Sequence record: JX128259
Origin: Escherichia phage ECML-134
Strand: one strand, 5' to 3'
DNA length: 64,000 nt
The translations under genes and the position numbers were made by a program. Every line of letters starts with the position of its first letter. The stretch's first letter is position 1. The notes beneath the pieces were generated by a model that did no database searches, was not told where the DNA came from, and worked only from the letters and a program-made list of their open reading frames with translations. This document shows, in pieces, positions 7,494 through 31,835 of the stretch.

Positions 7494-7802
7494 TTAGTCT
7501 TCTATGATATCCCTATCATATCCAAGTGAAATGAGAGTTTCTTTGAAGTGTTTAATGTTCTTTTGTCTAGAATCATTAATGAAAATGACTGGATAACGAA
7601 TGTTAAGAGATGTGAATCCAGCGCGTTTAGCAAGAGATACAATCAGTGGACGATCATACTCAATCTTACCGTTATTTGTAAGAACTTTATAGAAAGTAAA
7701 AGGAGCATTAAGCTCCTTTAGAAGTTTTGTAACTGATTGACATCCAGGACAACGACCTACTTCATCTGGAATTCCATAGACTTCAATCTTATTTTGTTTC
7801 AC
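7494..7802 (-). CDS. nrdH: Glutaredoxin-like protein NrdH
   Basis: 102 aa; CPGC redox motif near N-terminus; position upstream of nrdG/nrdD as in T4. Confidence 0.75.
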   Translation of the reverse strand: MKQNKIEVYGIPDEVGRCPGCQSVTKLLKELNAPFTFYKVLTNNGKIEYDRPLIVSLAKRAGFTSLNIRYPVIFINDSRQKNIKHFKETLISLGYDRDIIED

Positions 7803-7804
7803 AA

Positions 7805-8017
7805 CTATTCCTTACTAAGAGCAGCATTCAGCTTGTTAGTAATTTTATCCAGACGCTCATTAAACTCACTAGAAGATAAGCCCTTTTCTGGAGAAATCAA
7901 ACTAATCACGAAAAATATAGCAATAAAAGGAATAAGGAAAATAGCTCCAACTGCCATAAACAGAAAGAATGTTACAGTTGTAAGAAAATCAGCTAAACCT
8001 TTACGAAATTTATACAT
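7805..8017 (-). CDS. Hypothetical membrane protein
   Basis: 70 aa ORF with a long hydrophobic segment (VTFFLFMAVGAIFLIPFIAIFFVISLI). Confidence 0.45.
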   Translation of the reverse strand: MYKFRKGLADFLTTVTFFLFMAVGAIFLIPFIAIFFVISLISPEKGLSSSEFNERLDKITNKLNAALSKE

Positions 8018-8135
8018 TTACATTTACCTTTAATTGATTAACCAAGCATTGATAAGCACTAAACTATATTGGGAATAAAATTCTGGACCAAAATGAAAAA
8101 TCATATCATTTATAGTATCCATAATGTAATTCAAT

Positions 8136-12432: not shown

Positions 12433-12736
12433 TTTCTTCTCGGTCAAATCGGTGTTTACAATGACGACATTTATAACGAAGATTACTAGTCTGCCAATGG
12501 ACCAATTGCACCTGTTCAGTTCCACATTCAGGGCAATTAGGAACGTTTTTAGAAGCCCTTTCACGACGTTCAACCATAACCATAATGGCATCCCAAGCAG
12601 GAGGTTTAAAGTCTAAATCGTCACAACCATGAATCTTTCCACGCATTTCCAAATCGTCTTCTTCACCAGCCATAATAATTTTAATTAGACTAGAATTACT
12701 TGAAGCTGCAATGTCTTCTAATAGACGCTTTTTCAT
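12419..12736 (-). CDS. Hypothetical zinc-ribbon protein
   Basis: 105 aa; C-terminal CPECG...CRHCKH four-cysteine motif. Confidence 0.5.
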
Positions 12737-13662
12737 TTCAATACCTCAATAGCATTACGTAAACCATTTGCTTTTGCATTAAGAGCTTTTAACAATTTGG
12801 TGTGTTCTGCAATTTGGGCTTCAACTTCAATCAAACGAGCATTGAGATATTCGCGTTCTTCACTCAGATTATCAACCTTTTCTACTTTAGGCTCTTTTAC
12901 AACTGTCTTATATGTATTAGGGTTCTTCAGTTTAATTAGAATGCGTGAACTGTATAACATTGAACCATTATTTTCGGTTTCGTCATACATTTCTACTACA
13001 TCCATAATTTTTAACATCATGCGGAGTTTATAAGACAACGAACGAATAGTTTTGTTGTGCTTATTAATTTCTTTAGCTGTCATGGTGCCGAGATTACGTG
13101 AGTAATAATAAGGAACCTGGATATTAATTAATACTGATGAACCACCTGGCTTGTGTGTTACTTCATCAGCAATAACCCAGTCCTTAACATGAACTGTATT
13201 TGTACGGTCATCACCCGCGGTAAACAGTTTGCGAGCATGCTTAAAAAGCATATTCACTTGGTCATTGAATTGACAAGCAAATTTATCAGCAAATTTAGTT
13301 TCAGGAATGGTAGATAACCAATCAGCCAAATGAGTCTTTTTAACATCGTTAACAATAGTAAATTCAACCAAATCGGTTATAGATGTCTCAGATTTAATAA
13401 AGCTCGGCTTCATAAAGTTTTTAATGTTATCGTGAGCTACAGTAGAAGATAACATACGAGAACGTTTAAACCATTCAAGCAAATTACCTAACGAATGAGA
13501 ATAAGCGTTTTGAGTATCTTTACAGATATGATTTTCCTGGCCAACATATTGAAGGAAATCACGAAGAATATTATTGATTACTGCTCTGTGTCCGATCTGA
13601 TAATTACGGTGTTTAGTAATAAGACTGTCAAAATAATCAATATAATGTTTACGAGTTTTCAT
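12733..13662 (-). CDS. Hypothetical protein with C-terminal coiled coil (array member 1 of 4)
   Basis: 309 aa; last ~45 aa have heptad-like charged/Leu pattern ([42 protein letters not shown]). Confidence 0.6.
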   Translation of the reverse strand: MKTRKHYIDYFDSLITKHRNYQIGHRAVINNILRDFLQYVGQENHICKDTQNAYSHSLGNLLEWFKRSRMLSSTVAHDNIKNFMKPSFIKSETSITDLVEFTIVNDVKKTHLADWLSTIPETKFADKFACQFNDQVNMLFKHARKLFTAGDDRTNTVHVKDWVIADEVTHKPGGSSVLINIQVPYYYSRNLGTMTAKEINKHNKTIRSLSYKLRMMLKIMDVVEMYDETENNGSMLYSSRILIKLKNPNTYKTVVKEPKVEKVDNLSEEREYLNARLIEVEAQIAEHTKLLKALNAKANGLRNAIEVLK

Positions 13663-23978: not shown

Positions 23979-24191
23979 TCATTTTTGTCCTGTATTTACT
24001 TTATGCCGATGCACGGCCTTAACTTTATCAAGGTATTTTTCAAAATTTCGCAATCTAGTATAGTCTGCCGGAGATTGGTTGAGTGATACTTCTCGACGCA
24101 AAGCTGAAATGATATTTCCAACTTCCCTACGAATTTCATCTAATTGAAGAACAGTAAGATTGCGAAGTTGCTTTTCAGTTAATTGTAGCAT
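23979..24191 (-). CDS. Hypothetical protein (rI.1-like position)
   Basis: 70 aa basic ORF between tk and rI. Confidence 0.45.
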
Positions 24192-24233
24192 ATATACCCC
24201 TTTAGTTAGATAAACCTATTTATAACTTTTGCA

Positions 24234-24815
24234 CTAACCGAGCTTTTTAGTTAATTCATTCCAATGTTTTCTACACAAAGAAACATAAATTTCATCACCA
24301 ATACAGATTTGATTACCTTCTTTAACTGGTGTTCCATCTTCCATTAATCGAGCTGTCATAATCGCTTTTTTGCCACAATGACAAACTGCTTTTAGTTCAA
24401 TAAGTTTATCTGCAATCGCCAAAAGTTCTTTAGAACCTTCAAATAATTTTCCAGCGAAATCAGTCCTTAGTCCATAAGCCATAACAGGAACATTATATGT
24501 ATCAACAATTCGGCTTAATTGATGCACCTGTTTAGTTTTTAAAAACTGGGCTTCATCTACAAATACACAATGAATATCTTTTTGTGCTTCAGCCCATTTA
24601 TAGAACTCAAAAATATCCATATCATCCGTAATAATATTCGCTTCCTGCTTAATTCCAATGCGAGAAACGACTTCACAGACAGAATCACGAGTATCAATAG
24701 CAGGCTTAAGAACTAATACACCCATTCCGCGTTCTTTATAATTATGTGCAGCAGTCAAAAGAGAAGCAGATTTTCCAGCATTCATTGCTGCGTAAGTAAA
24801 AATTAAACTCGCCAT
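24234..24815 (-). CDS. tk: Thymidine kinase
   Basis: 193 aa; P-loop MNAGKS and C-terminal zinc motif CHCGKKA...C; matches T4 tk length. Confidence 0.9.
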   Translation of the reverse strand: MASLIFTYAAMNAGKSASLLTAAHNYKERGMGVLVLKPAIDTRDSVCEVVSRIGIKQEANIITDDMDIFEFYKWAEAQKDIHCVFVDEAQFLKTKQVHQLSRIVDTYNVPVMAYGLRTDFAGKLFEGSKELLAIADKLIELKAVCHCGKKAIMTARLMEDGTPVKEGNQICIGDEIYVSLCRKHWNELTKKLG

Positions 24816-24824
24816 ATCACCTTC

Positions 24825-25010
24825 TTAAAGCGTATTCACATAAGCTATTAATTCGTTTTCTTTCTTATCAAACCGATCAGCAAATTCTTCTTGCTGATCG
24901 GGAGATAGCGGGCCATATTCATCATAAAAGGTGTTTGCTTCTGTATGCTCATCTAGAAGTTCATGGATAAGCTCAAACAATTTATCTTTTTGTTCTTTAC
25001 TCAGACTCAT
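24825..25010 (-). CDS. Hypothetical small acidic protein
   Basis: 61 aa ORF. Confidence 0.4.
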   Translation of the reverse strand: MSLSKEQKDKLFELIHELLDEHTEANTFYDEYGPLSPDQQEEFADRFDKKENELIAYVNTL

Positions 25011-25180
25011 ATATTAATTTCCAGGAGTTTTAAAATAATTCTCTTTTGCTTAAATATTTCCATAGTTAAATGATCAGTATCTTTTTGACCAATTCCAATA
25101 GCAAAACCTTTATTAGCAGCGAGTTCAATTAAATTATCAAGTTCACGTGACACTTCATATTGTAACTCAGAACTATTCAT
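25007..25180 (-). CDS. Small hypothetical protein (57 aa)
   Basis: Own reading: MNSSELQYEVSRELDNLIELAANKGFAIGIGQKDTDHLTMEIFKQKRIILKLLEINI; ATGA-type overlaps at both ends. Confidence 0.35.
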   Translation of the reverse strand: MNSSELQYEVSRELDNLIELAANKGFAIGIGQKDTDHLTMEIFKQKRIILKLLEINI

Positions 25181-25404
25181 TTCGGTTTACCTTCTTTAAC
25201 GAAATCTGGATAAGGATAAAATCCCGAATAAAATCCTTCACCTTTATGATTGATGCATCCTTTATTAGAACAATAGCACCAATAATCGAAATCACAAGCC
25301 ATTTCATCATTACATAAAGCAAAAACAACCGGCCATTTACACTTTTCACAATGGGCATTTTTAAGAATACTAGTTTGGCTCATAACCATGTAACCTTTAA
25401 ACAA
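25177..25404 (-). CDS. Cys-rich small protein (putative zinc-binding)
   Basis: 75 aa with 9 Cys/His in CxxC-like spacing; preferred over the overlapping 25173..25358 frame. Confidence 0.4.
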   Translation of the reverse strand: MFKGYMVMSQTSILKNAHCEKCKWPVVFALCNDEMACDFDYWCYCSNKGCINHKGEGFYSGFYPYPDFVKEGKPK

Positions 25405-25607
25405 TATTCTTCTACATGTTGTTTACGACCTTTCTTATCAATAAAGGTATATTCAACGAATGTTCCAATATAGTCTTTATCTACATCATGTGGACTATTA
25501 ATTGGACATTTAGTACGGCAAATGCGTTCCCATTGACGAATAATTTCCACTTTGTTTTTAGGATCAAACGGATGCGGGTAATGTATATTCATAATAACGG
25601 TTCCCAA
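25380..25607 (-). CDS. Hypothetical protein
   Basis: 75 aa ORF. Confidence 0.4.
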   Translation of the reverse strand: MGTVIMNIHYPHPFDPKNKVEIIRQWERICRTKCPINSPHDVDKDYIGTFVEYTFIDKKGRKQHVEEYCLKVTWL

Positions 25608-26056
25608 TCAACAATCACAATTTCTAATTTAGAGGAATATGTATCTAAAATATCTTTAATAATATCCCAGTTCCCTTTACCTATGCCTGCACCAATCCTA
25701 GGCATATAGATTGTAGGTTTAATCAGTTTATTTTCGCCAAACTCATTTAATTCTAACATACAATTCATTAAAGCGGAATACTCAAAATTTGGCCCTGGTT
25801 GAAATTGAGTATAAAGATTAAAGCAGTAAGCTTTATGAGTCCTAAAGTACTTTTCATAGACTGAGTAAGAACCGAGTTTAGTTACATCACCCCATTCAGT
25901 CTGTAATTTATCAACTTCTAGAATTTTAGGGAAAGCTTTAGTTAATTGACCTGCGACTCCAGCTTTCATCGCGTGAAAACAATTGCATCCATGCGCAATA
26001 TTTTTACCTTCAGCGAAAAGGGCGACAATATCGCCCTTGATATATTTTACAATCAT
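25589..26056 (-). CDS. Macro-domain (ADP-ribose-binding/processing) protein
   Basis: 155 aa; IKGDI...AHGCNCF...AGVAGQL...IGAGIGKG resembles macro-domain signature blocks. Confidence 0.55.
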   Translation of the reverse strand: MIVKYIKGDIVALFAEGKNIAHGCNCFHAMKAGVAGQLTKAFPKILEVDKLQTEWGDVTKLGSYSVYEKYFRTHKAYCFNLYTQFQPGPNFEYSALMNCMLELNEFGENKLIKPTIYMPRIGAGIGKGNWDIIKDILDTYSSKLEIVIVDWEPLL

Positions 26057-26400
26057 CTAGTACTCAATCCTCGATTATAAGAATCTACCAAACGGTCAAC
26101 CATTGAATGACAAGCGGCTTTATCTTTCTCCTCCGCAACTGAACATTCTAAGGTATTCCACTTTTTAGCATATCGTTTTAATAATGTATCGTTTTTGTAT
26201 CTGCTTGATTTATCTCTTTCTCCGTCTTTATATGCATATATTAATTTCTGTGCAAATTCAGCTTGGCATGCTTTATTTTTCCCACAATAATCTGCCGCAG
26301 TGCGGTTTACATATTCTCTAATTTCAGTATATGATGTATCTGCTGACGCAGAAGCAGAAAATGAAATTAATCCTATACATAAAACCAAAATTTTAGTCAT
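26053..26400 (-). CDS. vs: Secreted small protein; position and 115 aa length match T4 vs
   Basis: N-terminal signal peptide MTKILVLCIGLISFSASASA; symbol assigned from synteny and length only. Confidence 0.4.
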   Translation of the reverse strand: MTKILVLCIGLISFSASASADTSYTEIREYVNRTAADYCGKNKACQAEFAQKLIYAYKDGERDKSSRYKNDTLLKRYAKKWNTLECSVAEEKDKAACHSMVDRLVDSYNRGLSTR

Positions 26401-26938
26401 TTACTATTTCCAAAAGTTTATTATTTTTAAGGTAATTAGCCTTTTCTAGGACTTCAGAAGCATATTTAGAACCAGCTTTAACATTCCATCCCGAATTATA
26501 AGAGGATATTGCTTTTCTTATATCGCCCTTATGTATATTTAACCAATAAGAAAGTTCAATGTACGCCCAGGAAGCTGAATTGGATCGTTTATTCAACATT
26601 CTTTTTATTTCAGCATCGGTCATATTATAACCAAGTTCCTTAACTCTTGCTCGCATAGTAGGCAAATAATTTTGGAACATTCCGTAGGCGTGATGCTTTG
26701 GTTTAGATTTTAAATTAACTCCGCCAGAGCTTTCTTGCCATAAAATAGCAGCCATTATATGACCTAATCCGCTCTTGTGGATATTTTTGTGTGTTTTATA
26801 TTTTCCATCCTTAGAAAATTGTTCCCCGAATTGATACGCGTAACGCATGTTATCGAGTTGGACATTACTGAAAGTATGCTCGGAGCTATGTGCCATCATT
26901 GAAATGGCCAATAGACCAGCGAGTAGTGCTTTTCTCAT
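26393..26938 (-). CDS. Periplasmic lytic-transglycosylase-like protein (SLT domain)
   Basis: Signal peptide MRKALLAGLLAISMMAHS; ILWQESSGG...YGMFQ resembles the SLT catalytic E-S / GLMQ block. Confidence 0.55.
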   Translation of the reverse strand: MRKALLAGLLAISMMAHSSEHTFSNVQLDNMRYAYQFGEQFSKDGKYKTHKNIHKSGLGHIMAAILWQESSGGVNLKSKPKHHAYGMFQNYLPTMRARVKELGYNMTDAEIKRMLNKRSNSASWAYIELSYWLNIHKGDIRKAISSYNSGWNVKAGSKYASEVLEKANYLKNNKLLEIVND

Positions 26939-26945
26939 GCTTACC

Positions 26946-27407
26946 TCATTGAGTTTTAATTACTGCTTTAGAAGCCTTTCCTGGTAAACGACGACTGTTA
27001 ATAATTGCCATCCTACATTGGAGTGACGGGTCTTTGAACTTCTCATTAGGTTTACAAACTGTAAATCCAAGCCAAAGATTTCCATCTGTGATTTCTAAAC
27101 GTCCAGGACGATATTCAATCCCATCAATAAAATCCTCATCGATATCAGGACGCGGAGGCATACTCAGGAATTCATTAACTTCTAAAACATGGTCTTTTAT
27201 TTTATGGAATAATTCAAAAACATATGTCTCATCAATCTCCCGTTGAATTGCGCGATCAAGAAGATGCTGAGAATATTTTAGATGAAACGATGAGACTCCT
27301 GCTGCTTTTGATGCCTCACGAATCTCATTGTTAATTTGACGAAACTCCGACTCAAAGTGACGACGAAGCTTATTTCGACGGATAAAAACTTCTGTATTGA
27401 TAGTCAT
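26946..27407 (-). CDS. regB: Endoribonuclease RegB
   Basis: 153 aa; matches recalled T4 RegB sequence and length; early promoter at 27423-27470. Confidence 0.75.
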   Translation of the reverse strand: MTINTEVFIRRNKLRRHFESEFRQINNEIREASKAAGVSSFHLKYSQHLLDRAIQREIDETYVFELFHKIKDHVLEVNEFLSMPPRPDIDEDFIDGIEYRPGRLEITDGNLWLGFTVCKPNEKFKDPSLQCRMAIINSRRLPGKASKAVIKTQ

Positions 27408-27422
27408 GTTATTCTCCTCTTA

Positions 27423-27470
27423 ACTGATAGAAAAATTATACCACAGTTAAGAGGAAAAGTAAACAGTTAT
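27423..27470 (-). promoter_or_regulatory. Early promoter with stem-loop upstream of regB
   Basis: gtaaac at 27459-27464; inverted repeat taactg/cagtta flanks the -10. Confidence 0.5.
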
Positions 27471-27745
27471 TCTTTAAATCTAATCAATTTATTCATAGAC
27501 TTTGAAACTTCTGCACGAACCTCATGTAGATTTTTGAGCTGTTCAAGACGCTGCGTATAGTAAGCAATTTCATCTTCTTCGAGACAGTCCTGTGAATCTT
27601 CTTTAAGATAACGTGCATAGTCCTGGAAAGCGTTACGGACTACTTCCTGGAAGTCATCAAGACTTTGAATTTTCTTAGGAGCAACAGATACACGACGAGG
27701 GGCAGTATAATACTCATAACCAAACCCTGCGCTTAATTGAGCCAT
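27467..27745 (-). CDS. Hypothetical protein (vs.3-like position)
   Basis: Internal start MAQLSAGF gives a TAATG junction. Confidence 0.4.
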
Positions 27746-28011
27746 TAGTATTTTTCCTCTGGTTGGAACACTGCACGACAAGCCCACATACTGGCTTCTT
27801 TGAGTTTCGTTTTAGCAATAGTTAACTGATCGAGGCTTTCAGCATAATTCTTCGCGAATTCACAGTCTTCACAATTATCTAGTGCTTCCCAGAATTCATC
27901 GTATAAAGCGTCAAAGATAAGTCCTAAACGAATTTCAGCGTCTTTGATAGCATTCACTTTACCGATTTTCTCTTCAGTATGCGGCTTATAACCTTTAATG
28001 TCTTCAATCAT
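27745..28011 (-). CDS. Hypothetical small protein at the vs.4 position (Acb2 candidate by synteny only)
   Basis: About 88 aa from start MIEDIKGY; T4 vs.4 is the described anti-CBASS sponge Acb2; no sequence comparison possible here. Confidence 0.35.
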
Positions 28012-28225
28012 ATTTGACTTCCTCACCAGTACATAAATCATATTCAACTAAACGAATAGGTTCATGAATGCCATATCCCTGAACAGAAATTTCTGTCGTA
28101 GGATAAATTCCATCAATATCGCCCATATTCCACGCTTCATTAAATTGCTGTTCGCCTGAATTACTAAACCACTCGGCGAAAGCATTTAGCACATCTTCAG
28201 AACCTTCAATAATTATCTTTGCCAT
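28004..28225 (-). CDS. Hypothetical acidic protein
   Basis: 73 aa ORF. Confidence 0.4.
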   Translation of the reverse strand: MAKIIIEGSEDVLNAFAEWFSNSGEQQFNEAWNMGDIDGIYPTTEISVQGYGIHEPIRLVEYDLCTGEEVKYD

Positions 28226-28587
28226 TACAAACTCTCGGTAAAGGTACGAGCGATAACGTCGCGCTGCTGTTCCGGAGTCAGAGAGTTAAAGCGAACTGCA
28301 TAACCGGATACACGGATGGTCAGCTGCGGATATTTTTCCGGATGCTTAACTGCATCTTCCAGAGTTTCACGACGCAGAACGTTAACGTTCAGGTGTTGAC
28401 CACCTTCAATTTTAACTGTAGGCTGTGGCTCAATTTCAATTTCACGGGCATGCAAACCATAGAAAATTTCTGGGTCTACAAAAGAGTCCTCTTTAAAGGT
28501 TTTAGAGACAATAATTCGTGCTTGAATACCATCTTCAAAATAAATAGTACCTTTATGTGTGCCTTCAAGAATTTGATATGCTTTCAT
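28225..28587 (-). CDS. Autonomous glycyl-radical cofactor (GrcA/YfiD-like; T4 Y06I-like)
   Basis: 120 aa; C-terminal [60 protein letters not shown] carries the RVSGY glycyl-radical motif and matches my recollection of E. coli GrcA. Confidence 0.85.
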
Positions 28588-28594
28588 ATAAACC

Positions 28595-28924
28595 TCAATT
28601 AGAAAATAAATTTATCCAAGATTGTTCTTTAATTAAAAACGGCTCAGAATCATATGCCATTAAACTTTGCGTAATTAATCCTTTAAAAGGTCCATCAATA
28701 AATTCCATGGTAAAATATGGAATTTTATTCATTAGCCGTGCATTAGGAGCAGTGCACAAAACTCTGCATCCTTTGAATACGCCTTTTTGTAATTTGTATT
28801 GCTTAGGATAAAATTCGCTCAAAATGTTATTGTTTGCTAAAATTTCAAAATGATTCACCAATTTATTTTTAATAGTTTTTGGCGAAAAATAAAGATATTC
28901 GAAAAGCTGAGTGTCTGTCATCAT
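28595..28924 (-). CDS. Hypothetical protein
   Basis: Start at [10 protein letters not shown]; overlaps stop of upstream P-loop gene. Confidence 0.4.
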
Positions 28925-29460
28925 TGCATTCCGATTACGAAAAACTGCGGACGAGTAATACCACCAATGCAACAGTTAATATTACAGCAGTGGTGTACAG
29001 TGTCAATATGGACACTATAAATCTTATCCATATCAGGAGATTTGACAGGCTCATCAATTATATACAAAATTCGCGAAAGCGATAAACCTCTGAACTTGCT
29101 TCCTTTATTACCAATAAAACTGCGTACAGAATCAGTAAATAAACGAAAACGTATATCATCATTAGAATAACGCGAAAATTCCTTTTTAATGTTATTTGCA
29201 GAAATTTTAGCGTAAGCTGAAGTATTAGAAAGAACAATAACTGTTCCACCGTCATACAACCAATTAGCGGCAAAATTAGTTACTGCAGTTGATTTACCGG
29301 ATTGACGTCCACCATCTAGTCGAAGTGTGCAATACTGCTTAAGTAAGTCTTCAAATGGCGGGATATATTCGTTTTTACAAATTTCTTCTACTCTAGCGTC
29401 AGAATGGTGTGTAAAAGCATTCATCAGGGATAGATAAGGACCAGTTAAAAATGTTCTCAT
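28921..29460 (-). CDS. Small P-loop NTPase with Cys/His-rich C-terminus
   Basis: Walker A GGRQSGKST, Walker B ILYIIDEP, C-terminal HHCCNINCC; start MRTFLTG after agagagaataaa RBS; sits where denV is in T4. Confidence 0.5.
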   Translation of the reverse strand: MRTFLTGPYLSLMNAFTHHSDARVEEICKNEYIPPFEDLLKQYCTLRLDGGRQSGKSTAVTNFAANWLYDGGTVIVLSNTSAYAKISANNIKKEFSRYSNDDIRFRLFTDSVRSFIGNKGSKFRGLSLSRILYIIDEPVKSPDMDKIYSVHIDTVHHCCNINCCIGGITRPQFFVIGMQ

Positions 29461-29494
29461 TTTATTCTCTCTAAATTTGGGCCATTCCATGGCG

Positions 29495-29530
29495 CATGAA
29501 TTGTCCATTTCTGTATTTACCCATTACCGC
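29495..29530 (-). repeat. About 34-nt repeat, copy 1
   Basis: catgaattgtccatttctgtatttacccattacc versus catgaattgtccatttctatatttacccattacc at 30144-30178. Confidence 0.6.

Positions 29531-30848: not shown

Positions 30849-30850
<2 letters not shown>
30808..30850 (-). promoter_or_regulatory. Early promoter with stem-loop upstream of ipIII
   Basis: gtaaaca at 30839-30845; inverted repeat actgtga/tcacagt flanks the -10. Confidence 0.5.
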
Positions 30851-31379
<529 letters not shown>

Positions 31380-31380
<1 letters not shown>

Positions 31381-31835
31381 TAAAAGAGGCTGTTCATTAT
31401 TCGGTAAAGTGAAGGACCCATCACATATTGCCACTGAGTACGAGGAATAAGAGCAAAAGCGTCCATCTCTGGAATCATAACGCCATCTTTATTTTCAAAA
31501 TAAGACTTGCAGCGGCAATTTCTAAACATCTCATGCTCTACTGGAATCGTATAATAAAATAACTGTAGGTCTTTATTACTAGAATATTTAAATACACCTA
31601 GGTCTTCTAGAAGGTCTGGATTATAATTGCTAAAACCAGTCTCTTCTAAACATTCTCTTCGTGCTGCATCTAATGCGCTTAAATCAGAATTTTCTACACG
31701 ACCTTTTGGAATATCCCAACGATGTGCCATCGTTCCAGGCTTACGAGAACCAGTAACCCGACCCATAAATAAATCTTTATCTTCTGTCATAAAGATAATA
31801 CCAGCTGATAGTGTTTTCATTTTAATTTCCTGCAT
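31380..31835 (-). CDS. nudE: Nudix hydrolase NudE
   Basis: Nudix box GRVENSDLSALDAARRECLEETG; 151 aa; start may instead be the ATGA-coupled Met at 31820. Confidence 0.8.

Follow-up and report, generated by a model that had tools for sequence, protein, structure and literature searches.

The Streptomyces coelicolor macrodomain SCO6735 (PDB 5E3B) hydrolyses thymidine-ADP-ribose on DNA at a higher rate than either DarG or TARG1, and it rescues DarT toxicity (PMC9411070). Its Q85A and Q85E variants are inactive, N27S is nearly inactive and G128E is impaired, and a lysine-free mechanism relying on a water molecule and the protein backbone has been proposed (PMC9411070). SCO6735 and Bt_1257 from Bacteroides (2FG1/2AFC) define a subclass characterized by a longer mobile loop, about five residues beyond that of DarG and TARG1, and this loop, with its two lysines, has been proposed as the reason for the efficiency of SCO6735 on DNA (PMC9411070). 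On nucleic acids, ADP-ribose linked to guanosine, to a 5'-phosphate or to a 2'-OH is not removed by SCO6735 (PMC11833690). Furthermore, SCO6735 and human TARG1/OARD1 (4J5R/4J5S) also remove uracil-linked ADP-ribose from RNA (PMC13036486), so that TARG1 clears both thymine- and uracil-linked ADP-ribose (PMC9411070, PMC13036486).

On the phage side, a HIDEN-SEQ transposon screen of T4 on a DarTG2 host returned tk.4 as the single significant hit, and a clean tk.4 knockout was DarTG2-sensitive, upon which the gene was named adfM (anti-DarT factor, macrodomain); tk.4 was not reported as a hit under the other conditions screened, and T5 served as the DarTG2-sensitive control (bioRxiv 10.1101/2025.11.20.689424). 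The authors point to the structural similarity of Tk.4 to the DarG macrodomain from Mycobacterium tuberculosis, write that enzymatic removal "seems likely", and do not discuss the lysine, the glutamine, SCO6735 or TARG1 (bioRxiv 10.1101/2025.11.20.689424). In the literature searched, this preprint of November 2025 was the only work on T4 Tk.4, and no biochemistry of the protein was found. A second protein named AdfM, from the chimallivirus PhiKZ, removes ADP-ribose from DarT2-modified DNA in vitro (Cell Rep 2026, PMC13309987), and the T4 gene 30.3 product, AdfN, erases the guanine marks left by DarT1 (PMC11825919).

The gene described here lies in a 64,000-nucleotide stretch of Escherichia phage ECML-134 (JX128259), hereafter the window. 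The original prediction, made from the letters alone, held that its product could reverse defence-imposed ADP-ribosylation of DNA by systems such as DarTG, and suggested plating a deletion mutant on DarTG hosts. The single screen hit and the sensitized deletion mutant of T4 agree with the first point, and the suggested plating has in effect been done, in T4, with a clean deletion that sensitized the phage (bioRxiv 10.1101/2025.11.20.689424). Since both the idea and its test match published work, the idea is right and the function, already published for the T4 orthologue, is not new; what the present analysis adds is the Gln-type active site. Altogether, we consider it highly probable that this gene is the orthologue of T4 tk.4/adfM and that it encodes a TARG1/ALC1-like macrodomain hydrolysing thymidine-ADP-ribose on DNA against DarTG2 by means of a lysine-less, SCO6735-type site.

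The tk.4 locus of ECML-134

The whole 64-kb window is Tequatrovirus DNA, and the 3.5-kb stretch around the gene is 97-98% identical to many Tequatrovirus genomes. The gene and its junctions are as follows.

25589..26056, minus strand: tk.4/adfM coding sequence, 155 aa, ATG start, single stand-alone macrodomain by prediction
26053..26056, minus strand: ATGA overlap of the vs stop and the tk.4 start, read from the sequence and arranged identically in T4
25589..25592, minus strand: ATGA overlap of the tk.4 stop and the tk.3 start, from the T4 alignment and the T4 annotation

The gene stands in the block tk–tk.3–tk.4–vs–vs.1–regB, in the same order as in T4, with vs upstream and tk.3 downstream; tk and tk.3 on one side and vs, vs.1 and regB on the other mark the place of this gene in Tequatrovirus genomes, where it is labelled tk.4, "phosphatase", "macro domain protein" or "Poa1p_like family protein with Macro domain". 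The T4 reference annotation (NP_049723) reads "phosphatase; contains A1pp phosphatase motif". The window protein and T4 Tk.4 are of equal length and identical at 149 of 155 residues (96%). By sequence, synteny and matching junctions, the gene is the orthologue of T4 tk.4.

The six substitutions, given from window to T4, are A29T, K31G, A32S, V48A, K134E and D135G. Four of them (29, 31, 32 and 48) fall in or near the substrate-binding loop after Asn25, every invariant residue of the family is kept in the window allele, and 9 of 106 family members likewise have Lys rather than Gly at position 31; the six differences presumably leave the activity of the window allele unchanged. At the nucleotide level, about 10 differences are packed within some 25 bases at codons 28-36 (25952..25975; HAMKAGVAG in the window, HTMGSGVAG in T4), four more occur at codons 134-135 (25652..25657; KD versus EG in T4), and the neighbouring vs gene is about 99% identical to that of T4. 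The crowding of changes after Asn25 suggests that this part of the substrate-binding loop is mosaic or evolving fast.

The tk-vs-regB block of T4 is prereplicative, and the placement of the gene "among early genes" in the original prediction fits this setting. From T4 biology, tk.4 would be transcribed as part of a polycistronic early unit, and the ATGA overlap with vs (26053..26056, minus strand) may provide translational coupling. A promoter and terminator scan of 24000..29500 gave no sign of a dedicated tk.4 promoter, as the 20 promoter-like sites counted do not exceed the 22 that chance alone would give. One sigma-70-like site, at 27435..27463 on the minus strand directly upstream of regB, has TTTACT, a 17-base spacer, TATAAT and an upstream TG; it makes the strongest promoter candidate for the regB-vs.1-vs-tk.4 unit, in a scan that overall does not rise above chance.

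A search of the 64-kb window with the family profile found no second macrodomain. The interval between tk.3 and tk differs from that of T4, where tk.2 directly follows tk.3: it holds a cysteine-rich ORF of 75 aa (25177..25404, minus strand) with a zinc-finger-like pattern, HCEKCKW...CNDEMAC...CYCSNKGCINH, and an ORF of 57 aa (25007..25180, minus strand).

Macrodomain fold and lysine-less active site

The four motifs on which the macrodomain call had been based are all in the translation, namely IKGDI (residues 6-10), AHGCNCF (21-27), AGVAGQL (32-38) and IGAGIGKG (121-128), and the call itself is correct: the Pfam search proposed at the outset gave PF01661 at 23.5 bits for a gathering score of 22, a narrow margin (E 5.6e-5), over profile positions 2-115 of 118 (114/118). 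The protein also matches PHROG 335, labelled "phosphatase", at 8e-64. A single-sequence search of PDB sequences returned the macrodomains of Bt_1257, Poa1p, TARG1 and DarG, with M. tuberculosis DarG at an E value of 0.57 only. With a family profile built from 39 homologues, the PDB macrodomains matched between 1e-20 and 9e-12, among them Bt_1257 at 1e-20, SCO6735 at 4e-16, TARG1 at 6e-16, Poa1p at 4e-15 and M. tuberculosis DarG at 7e-13. The AlphaFold2 model is confident (pLDDT 94.3, pTM 0.90) and predicts a three-layer alpha/beta/alpha macro fold, for which Foldseek returned macrodomains at TM 0.7-0.8, TARG1 being the top match (E 8e-10, TM 0.72-0.79). Resemblance of this order cannot plausibly be put down to chance. 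By its sequence, the protein is assigned as a stand-alone macrodomain of the TARG1/ALC1-like class, and from the conserved Asn25 and glycine-rich loops (G33, G122, G124) it is predicted to bind ADP-ribose.

Structural neighbours do not discriminate between activities, as the phosphatase Poa1p scores equally to DarG. The T4 GenBank note and the PHROG label would make the protein a phosphatase for a small metabolite, ADP-ribose 1''-phosphate, in the manner of Poa1p. His22 aligns with Poa1p His23 and is nearly invariant; the position of Poa1p Ser30 (residue 29) has Ala in the window allele, Thr in the T4 one, and any of A, T, V, I, S, Q, N and further residues elsewhere in the family, and Poa1p has Ser where the family has the invariant Gln84, the roles of the Poa1p residues being assumed from the titles of PDB mutant entries. 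We know of no source of ADP-ribose 1''-phosphate in T4 RNA repair. The term "phosphatase" is a historical and generic label for macrodomains, and the T4 phenotype is specific to DarTG2; a phosphatase of this type is thus a very improbable description of the protein.

The residues bearing on hydrolysis of thymidine-ADP-ribose were located by alignment and by their conservation, which was scored over 105 homologues from a first search and then over 246, including the best 150 cluster representatives. The predicted elements of the active site are as follows.

25952..25984, minus strand: codons 25-35 (NCFHAMKAGVA), Asn25 and the following loop, which corresponds to the loop that binds substrate in TARG1-like macrodomains
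25805..25819, minus strand: codons 80-84 (NLYTQ), the Gln84 site, from profile alignments
25673..25702, minus strand: codons 119-128 (PRIGAGIGKG), glycine-rich diphosphate-binding loop, from alignment and conservation

Gly8, Gly23, Asn25, Gly33, Ala35, Asn80, Gln84, Pro119, Ile121, Gly122 and Gly124 are essentially invariant. All 246 family members scored have Asn25, the counterpart of SCO6735 Asn27 and DarG Asn22; after it come Gly33 and Ala35, both invariant in the family alignment. Gln84, present in 106 of 106 and 245 of 246 members, sits on the catalytic lysine of TARG1 (K84), DarG (K80) and PhiKZ gp104 (K78), and is matched by a Gln in SCO6735 (Gln85) and in Bt_1257; its placement was obtained by three independent alignments, of the profile with PDB sequences, of the family with PhiKZ gp104 by hhalign and of all references by hmmalign. 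In the last element the family alignment shows no variation at P119, I121, G122 and G124; the counterparts of Gly122 and Gly124 in SCO6735 are Gly126 and Gly128, and TARG1 has Asp125 where Tk.4 has Gly126. Counting along the 5E3B chain gave an offset of 20 and hence Val25, Asn27, Gln85, Lys89, Gly126 and Gly128, in agreement with PMC9411070. Read from these alignments, the active site is of a lysine-less Gln type and not DarG-like.

The AH... and PRIGCG motifs are common to TARG1 and Tk.4, whereas the Lys84/Asp125 dyad of TARG1 is replaced by Gln84/Gly126 in Tk.4 and its Ser35 by Asn25. SCO6735 and Bt_1257 are the best sequence and structure matches of Tk.4; all three proteins have the AH-x-C-N, N-x-x-x-Q and PRIG-x-G motifs and a stand-alone build of about 155-160 aa with no paired DarT toxin, although SCO6735 and Bt_1257 are bacterial chromosomal proteins, Tk.4 is a phage protein, and identity is only about 24-27%. 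The glutamine in place of lysine, the locking asparagine and the phosphate-loop glycine that mark the SCO6735 subclass are present as Q84, N25 and G124. Other positions differ: Val25 of SCO6735 corresponds to Gly23 in Tk.4, and a Gly to Thr83, a Thr as in the "TK" of DarG and TARG1. The mobile loop after the Gln is 5-6 residues longer in SCO6735 and Bt_1257 than in the T4 family, where the loop after Gln84 has 8 residues in 86 of 106 members and is devoid of the two lysines of SCO6735. Because this longer loop is missing, the alignments place Tk.4 outside the plain SCO6735 subclass, yet it would work like SCO6735 at the catalytic centre.

These correspondences allow a mechanism to be proposed. 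Once triggered, DarTG2 would act through DarT2, which puts ADP-ribose on thymidine of single-stranded phage DNA, and replication would be blocked. Tk.4/AdfM would bind the ADP-ribose and hydrolyse the bond between thymine and ribose, restoring the DNA and releasing free ADP-ribose. Gln84, held by Asn25, would position the distal ribose, while the Gly122/Gly124 loop would hold the diphosphate; the likely nucleophile would be a water molecule activated via the backbone at residue 23 (Gly23, at the position of the SCO6735 Val25 backbone). The DarTG2 phenotype is that of T4, as described in the preprint, rather than that of ECML-134, and from it and the alignments we infer catalysis on thymidine-ADP-ribose DNA by the window protein.

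Relation to DarG and alternative modes of action

The likeness to DarG, noted in the T4 work, stops at the macrodomain fold. DarG of Thermus aquaticus (5M31/5M3E) and M. tuberculosis (5M3I) has a catalytic lysine (Lys80 in the T. aquaticus protein) where Tk.4 has Gln84, and its NTVN, FPTK and PPLG motifs read HGCN, LYTQ and PRIG in Tk.4. By comparison with the NCBIfam and PADLOC DarG models, the DarT-binding C-terminal domain is absent from the 155-aa protein: NCBIfam NF048014 gave 25.6 bits for a cut-off of 250 over profile positions 2-147 of 338, and the PADLOC model gave an E value of 8.8e-8 over positions 2-145 of 329, in both cases the macrodomain part only. There is no darT among the neighbours of tk.4, which are vs, vs.1, regB, tk.3 and tk. 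Capture of a DarG as an "orphan antitoxin" was considered as the origin of the T4 type and set aside, since neither the lysine nor the motifs of DarG are found in Tk.4.

Such an origin does hold for the other AdfM.

12518..13006 of the PhiKZ segment compared: PhiKZ gp104, the chimallivirus AdfM, of the DarG-like lysine type

PhiKZ gp104 is likewise a stand-alone phage macrodomain against DarTG2 and has the same name and proposed action as the T4 protein, but it is imported into the phage nucleus and it is DarG-type, as it matches M. tuberculosis DarG at 9e-25 and has an FPTK motif whose Lys78 aligns with Gln84 of Tk.4. Its identity to Tk.4 is about 20% (BLASTP E 0.015). Given this low identity and the Lys versus Gln type, the name AdfM covers two separate macrodomain lineages.

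The missing catalytic lysine of DarG and TARG1 could also be taken to mean that Tk.4 is a non-catalytic neutralizer, which would bind DarT2 itself, ADP-ribosylated DNA or ligands derived from NAD and block the toxin stoichiometrically with no hydrolysis. The published evidence in T4 is only genetic, and two other anti-DarT factors, AdfA and AdfB, do act by toxin binding (PMC11825919). On the other side, the residues that are invariant at the lysine site across 246 diverse homologues are precisely those required by SCO6735, a fast enzyme that has no lysine there, and the domain through which DarG binds DarT is absent. We regard a purely binding protein as quite unlikely, and favour hydrolysis of thymidine-ADP-ribose by the Gln-type site.

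The substrate could nevertheless be broader than thymidine-ADP-ribose or different from it. The activity of SCO6735 and TARG1 on uracil-linked ADP-ribose of RNA (PMC13036486) makes uracil-ADP-ribose RNA a plausible additional substrate of Tk.4. It is a further step to suppose that such RNA, Asp/Glu marks of proteins or the marks left by Alt, ModA and ModB are the main substrate and that DarT2 reversal is one facet, and here we see a small chance only. The spread of the family over 2,726 of 50,697 phage records and many host genera may exceed what DarTG2 pressure alone would account for. Against this, the DarTG2 host yielded tk.4 as its single hit, and the gene was not reported for the other conditions of the screen (bioRxiv 10.1101/2025.11.20.689424), SCO6735 does not act on the guanosine-, 5'-phosphate- or 2'-OH-linked marks (PMC11833690), and T4 is still sensitive to CmdTAC, an mRNA ADP-ribosyltransferase system, in a paper that contains nothing on phage macrodomains (PMC11618068).

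The original prediction had also invoked the ADP-ribosyltransferases of the phage itself, as well as degradation of ADP-ribose-derived signals as in Thoeris. T4 Alt, ModA and ModB modify arginine, while TARG1-class macrodomains are known to act on Asp/Glu-, thymine- and uracil-linked ADP-ribose and are not known to act on arginine, so that the first link finds no support. Nothing ties the gene to Thoeris or to any such signal; a degrader or sponge of immune signals such as gcADPR is favoured only by the ADP-ribose binding that is general among macrodomains and by weak matches to the macro domains of ThsA, and we hold it to be most improbable.

Distribution and implications

A homologue was detected by tblastn in 2,726 of 50,697 phage records (about 5%), the carriers being mostly large myoviruses of Escherichia, Klebsiella, Salmonella, Pseudomonas, Vibrio, Acinetobacter and Aeromonas. 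Among 1.84 billion cluster representatives, all scanned with HMMER, 1,137 matched at <=1e-30 and 9,895 at <=1e-10, mostly stand-alone proteins of 145-190 aa. The Tk.4 family is absent from T5, in keeping with the DarTG2 sensitivity of that phage: all its 121,750 bases were scanned (best score 7 bits), whereas the same profile search gave 215.6 bits for both the window gene and T4 tk.4. In T5, the 168-aa product of T5.105 (7588..8094 of the T5 segment), annotated "Sir2 (NAD-dependent deacetylase)", has no match to the Tk.4 profile; this annotation looks doubtful, the neighbouring T5.102 being a gene of real Sir2 length.

One homologue (P0056) came from contig JBOGAE010000741.1 of a Cetobacterium metagenome-assembled genome (69..3159 of the segment), where it is flanked by genes for an RNA ligase resembling T4 Rnl1 and a helicase resembling Dda, and a DUF4326 gene lies close by. 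The contig gives no evidence of a bacterial toxin partner; it looks T4-like and is probably a phage fragment binned into a bacterial genome.

Among 10 long homologues examined for domain fusions, one was informative, a Macro-NUDIX protein (P0150). In the window, a Nudix protein is encoded about 5 kb upstream of tk.4 (31380..31835, minus strand), beside the e lysozyme gene (30849..31343, minus strand); by its position and Nudix box we take it to be the orthologue of T4 nudE/e.1. T4 NudE has been reported to hydrolyse ADP-ribose. Together, the Nudix neighbour and the fusion hint at clearance of the ADP-ribose released by the macrodomain.

As a wider reading, which we put forward tentatively and with slightly less than even confidence, T4-type AdfM would represent a separate, Gln-type, short-loop TARG1-like lineage that arose with no captured DarG, uses an SCO6735-like mechanism and possibly serves as a general eraser of thymine-DNA and uracil-RNA marks, the loop after Asn25 being possibly a site of an arms race. 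If so, it may protect against ADP-ribosyltransferase defences beyond DarTG2.

For practical purposes, Tk.4 is mechanistically nearer to SCO6735 than to DarG, which makes Q84A or N25S the relevant inactive mutants; there is no lysine mutant to make, because the position of DarG Lys80 and TARG1 Lys84 is occupied by Gln84. The database label "phosphatase" is misleading and "anti-DarTG2 macrodomain" would describe the gene better, while the single name AdfM has come to designate two lineages of phage macrodomains in the literature of 2025-2026.

Defence against phages through DNA ADP-ribosylation by DarT is widespread, and both types of mark have their eraser in T-even phages, guanine marks being removed by AdfN and thymine marks, probably, by Tk.4/AdfM. 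AdfN follows the same strategy, that of a phage enzyme erasing the DarT mark from DNA, with an unrelated fold (NADAR), a guanine-linked substrate and a different locus, which lies outside the window. The presence of tk.4/adfM explains the indifference of T4-like phages to DarTG2.
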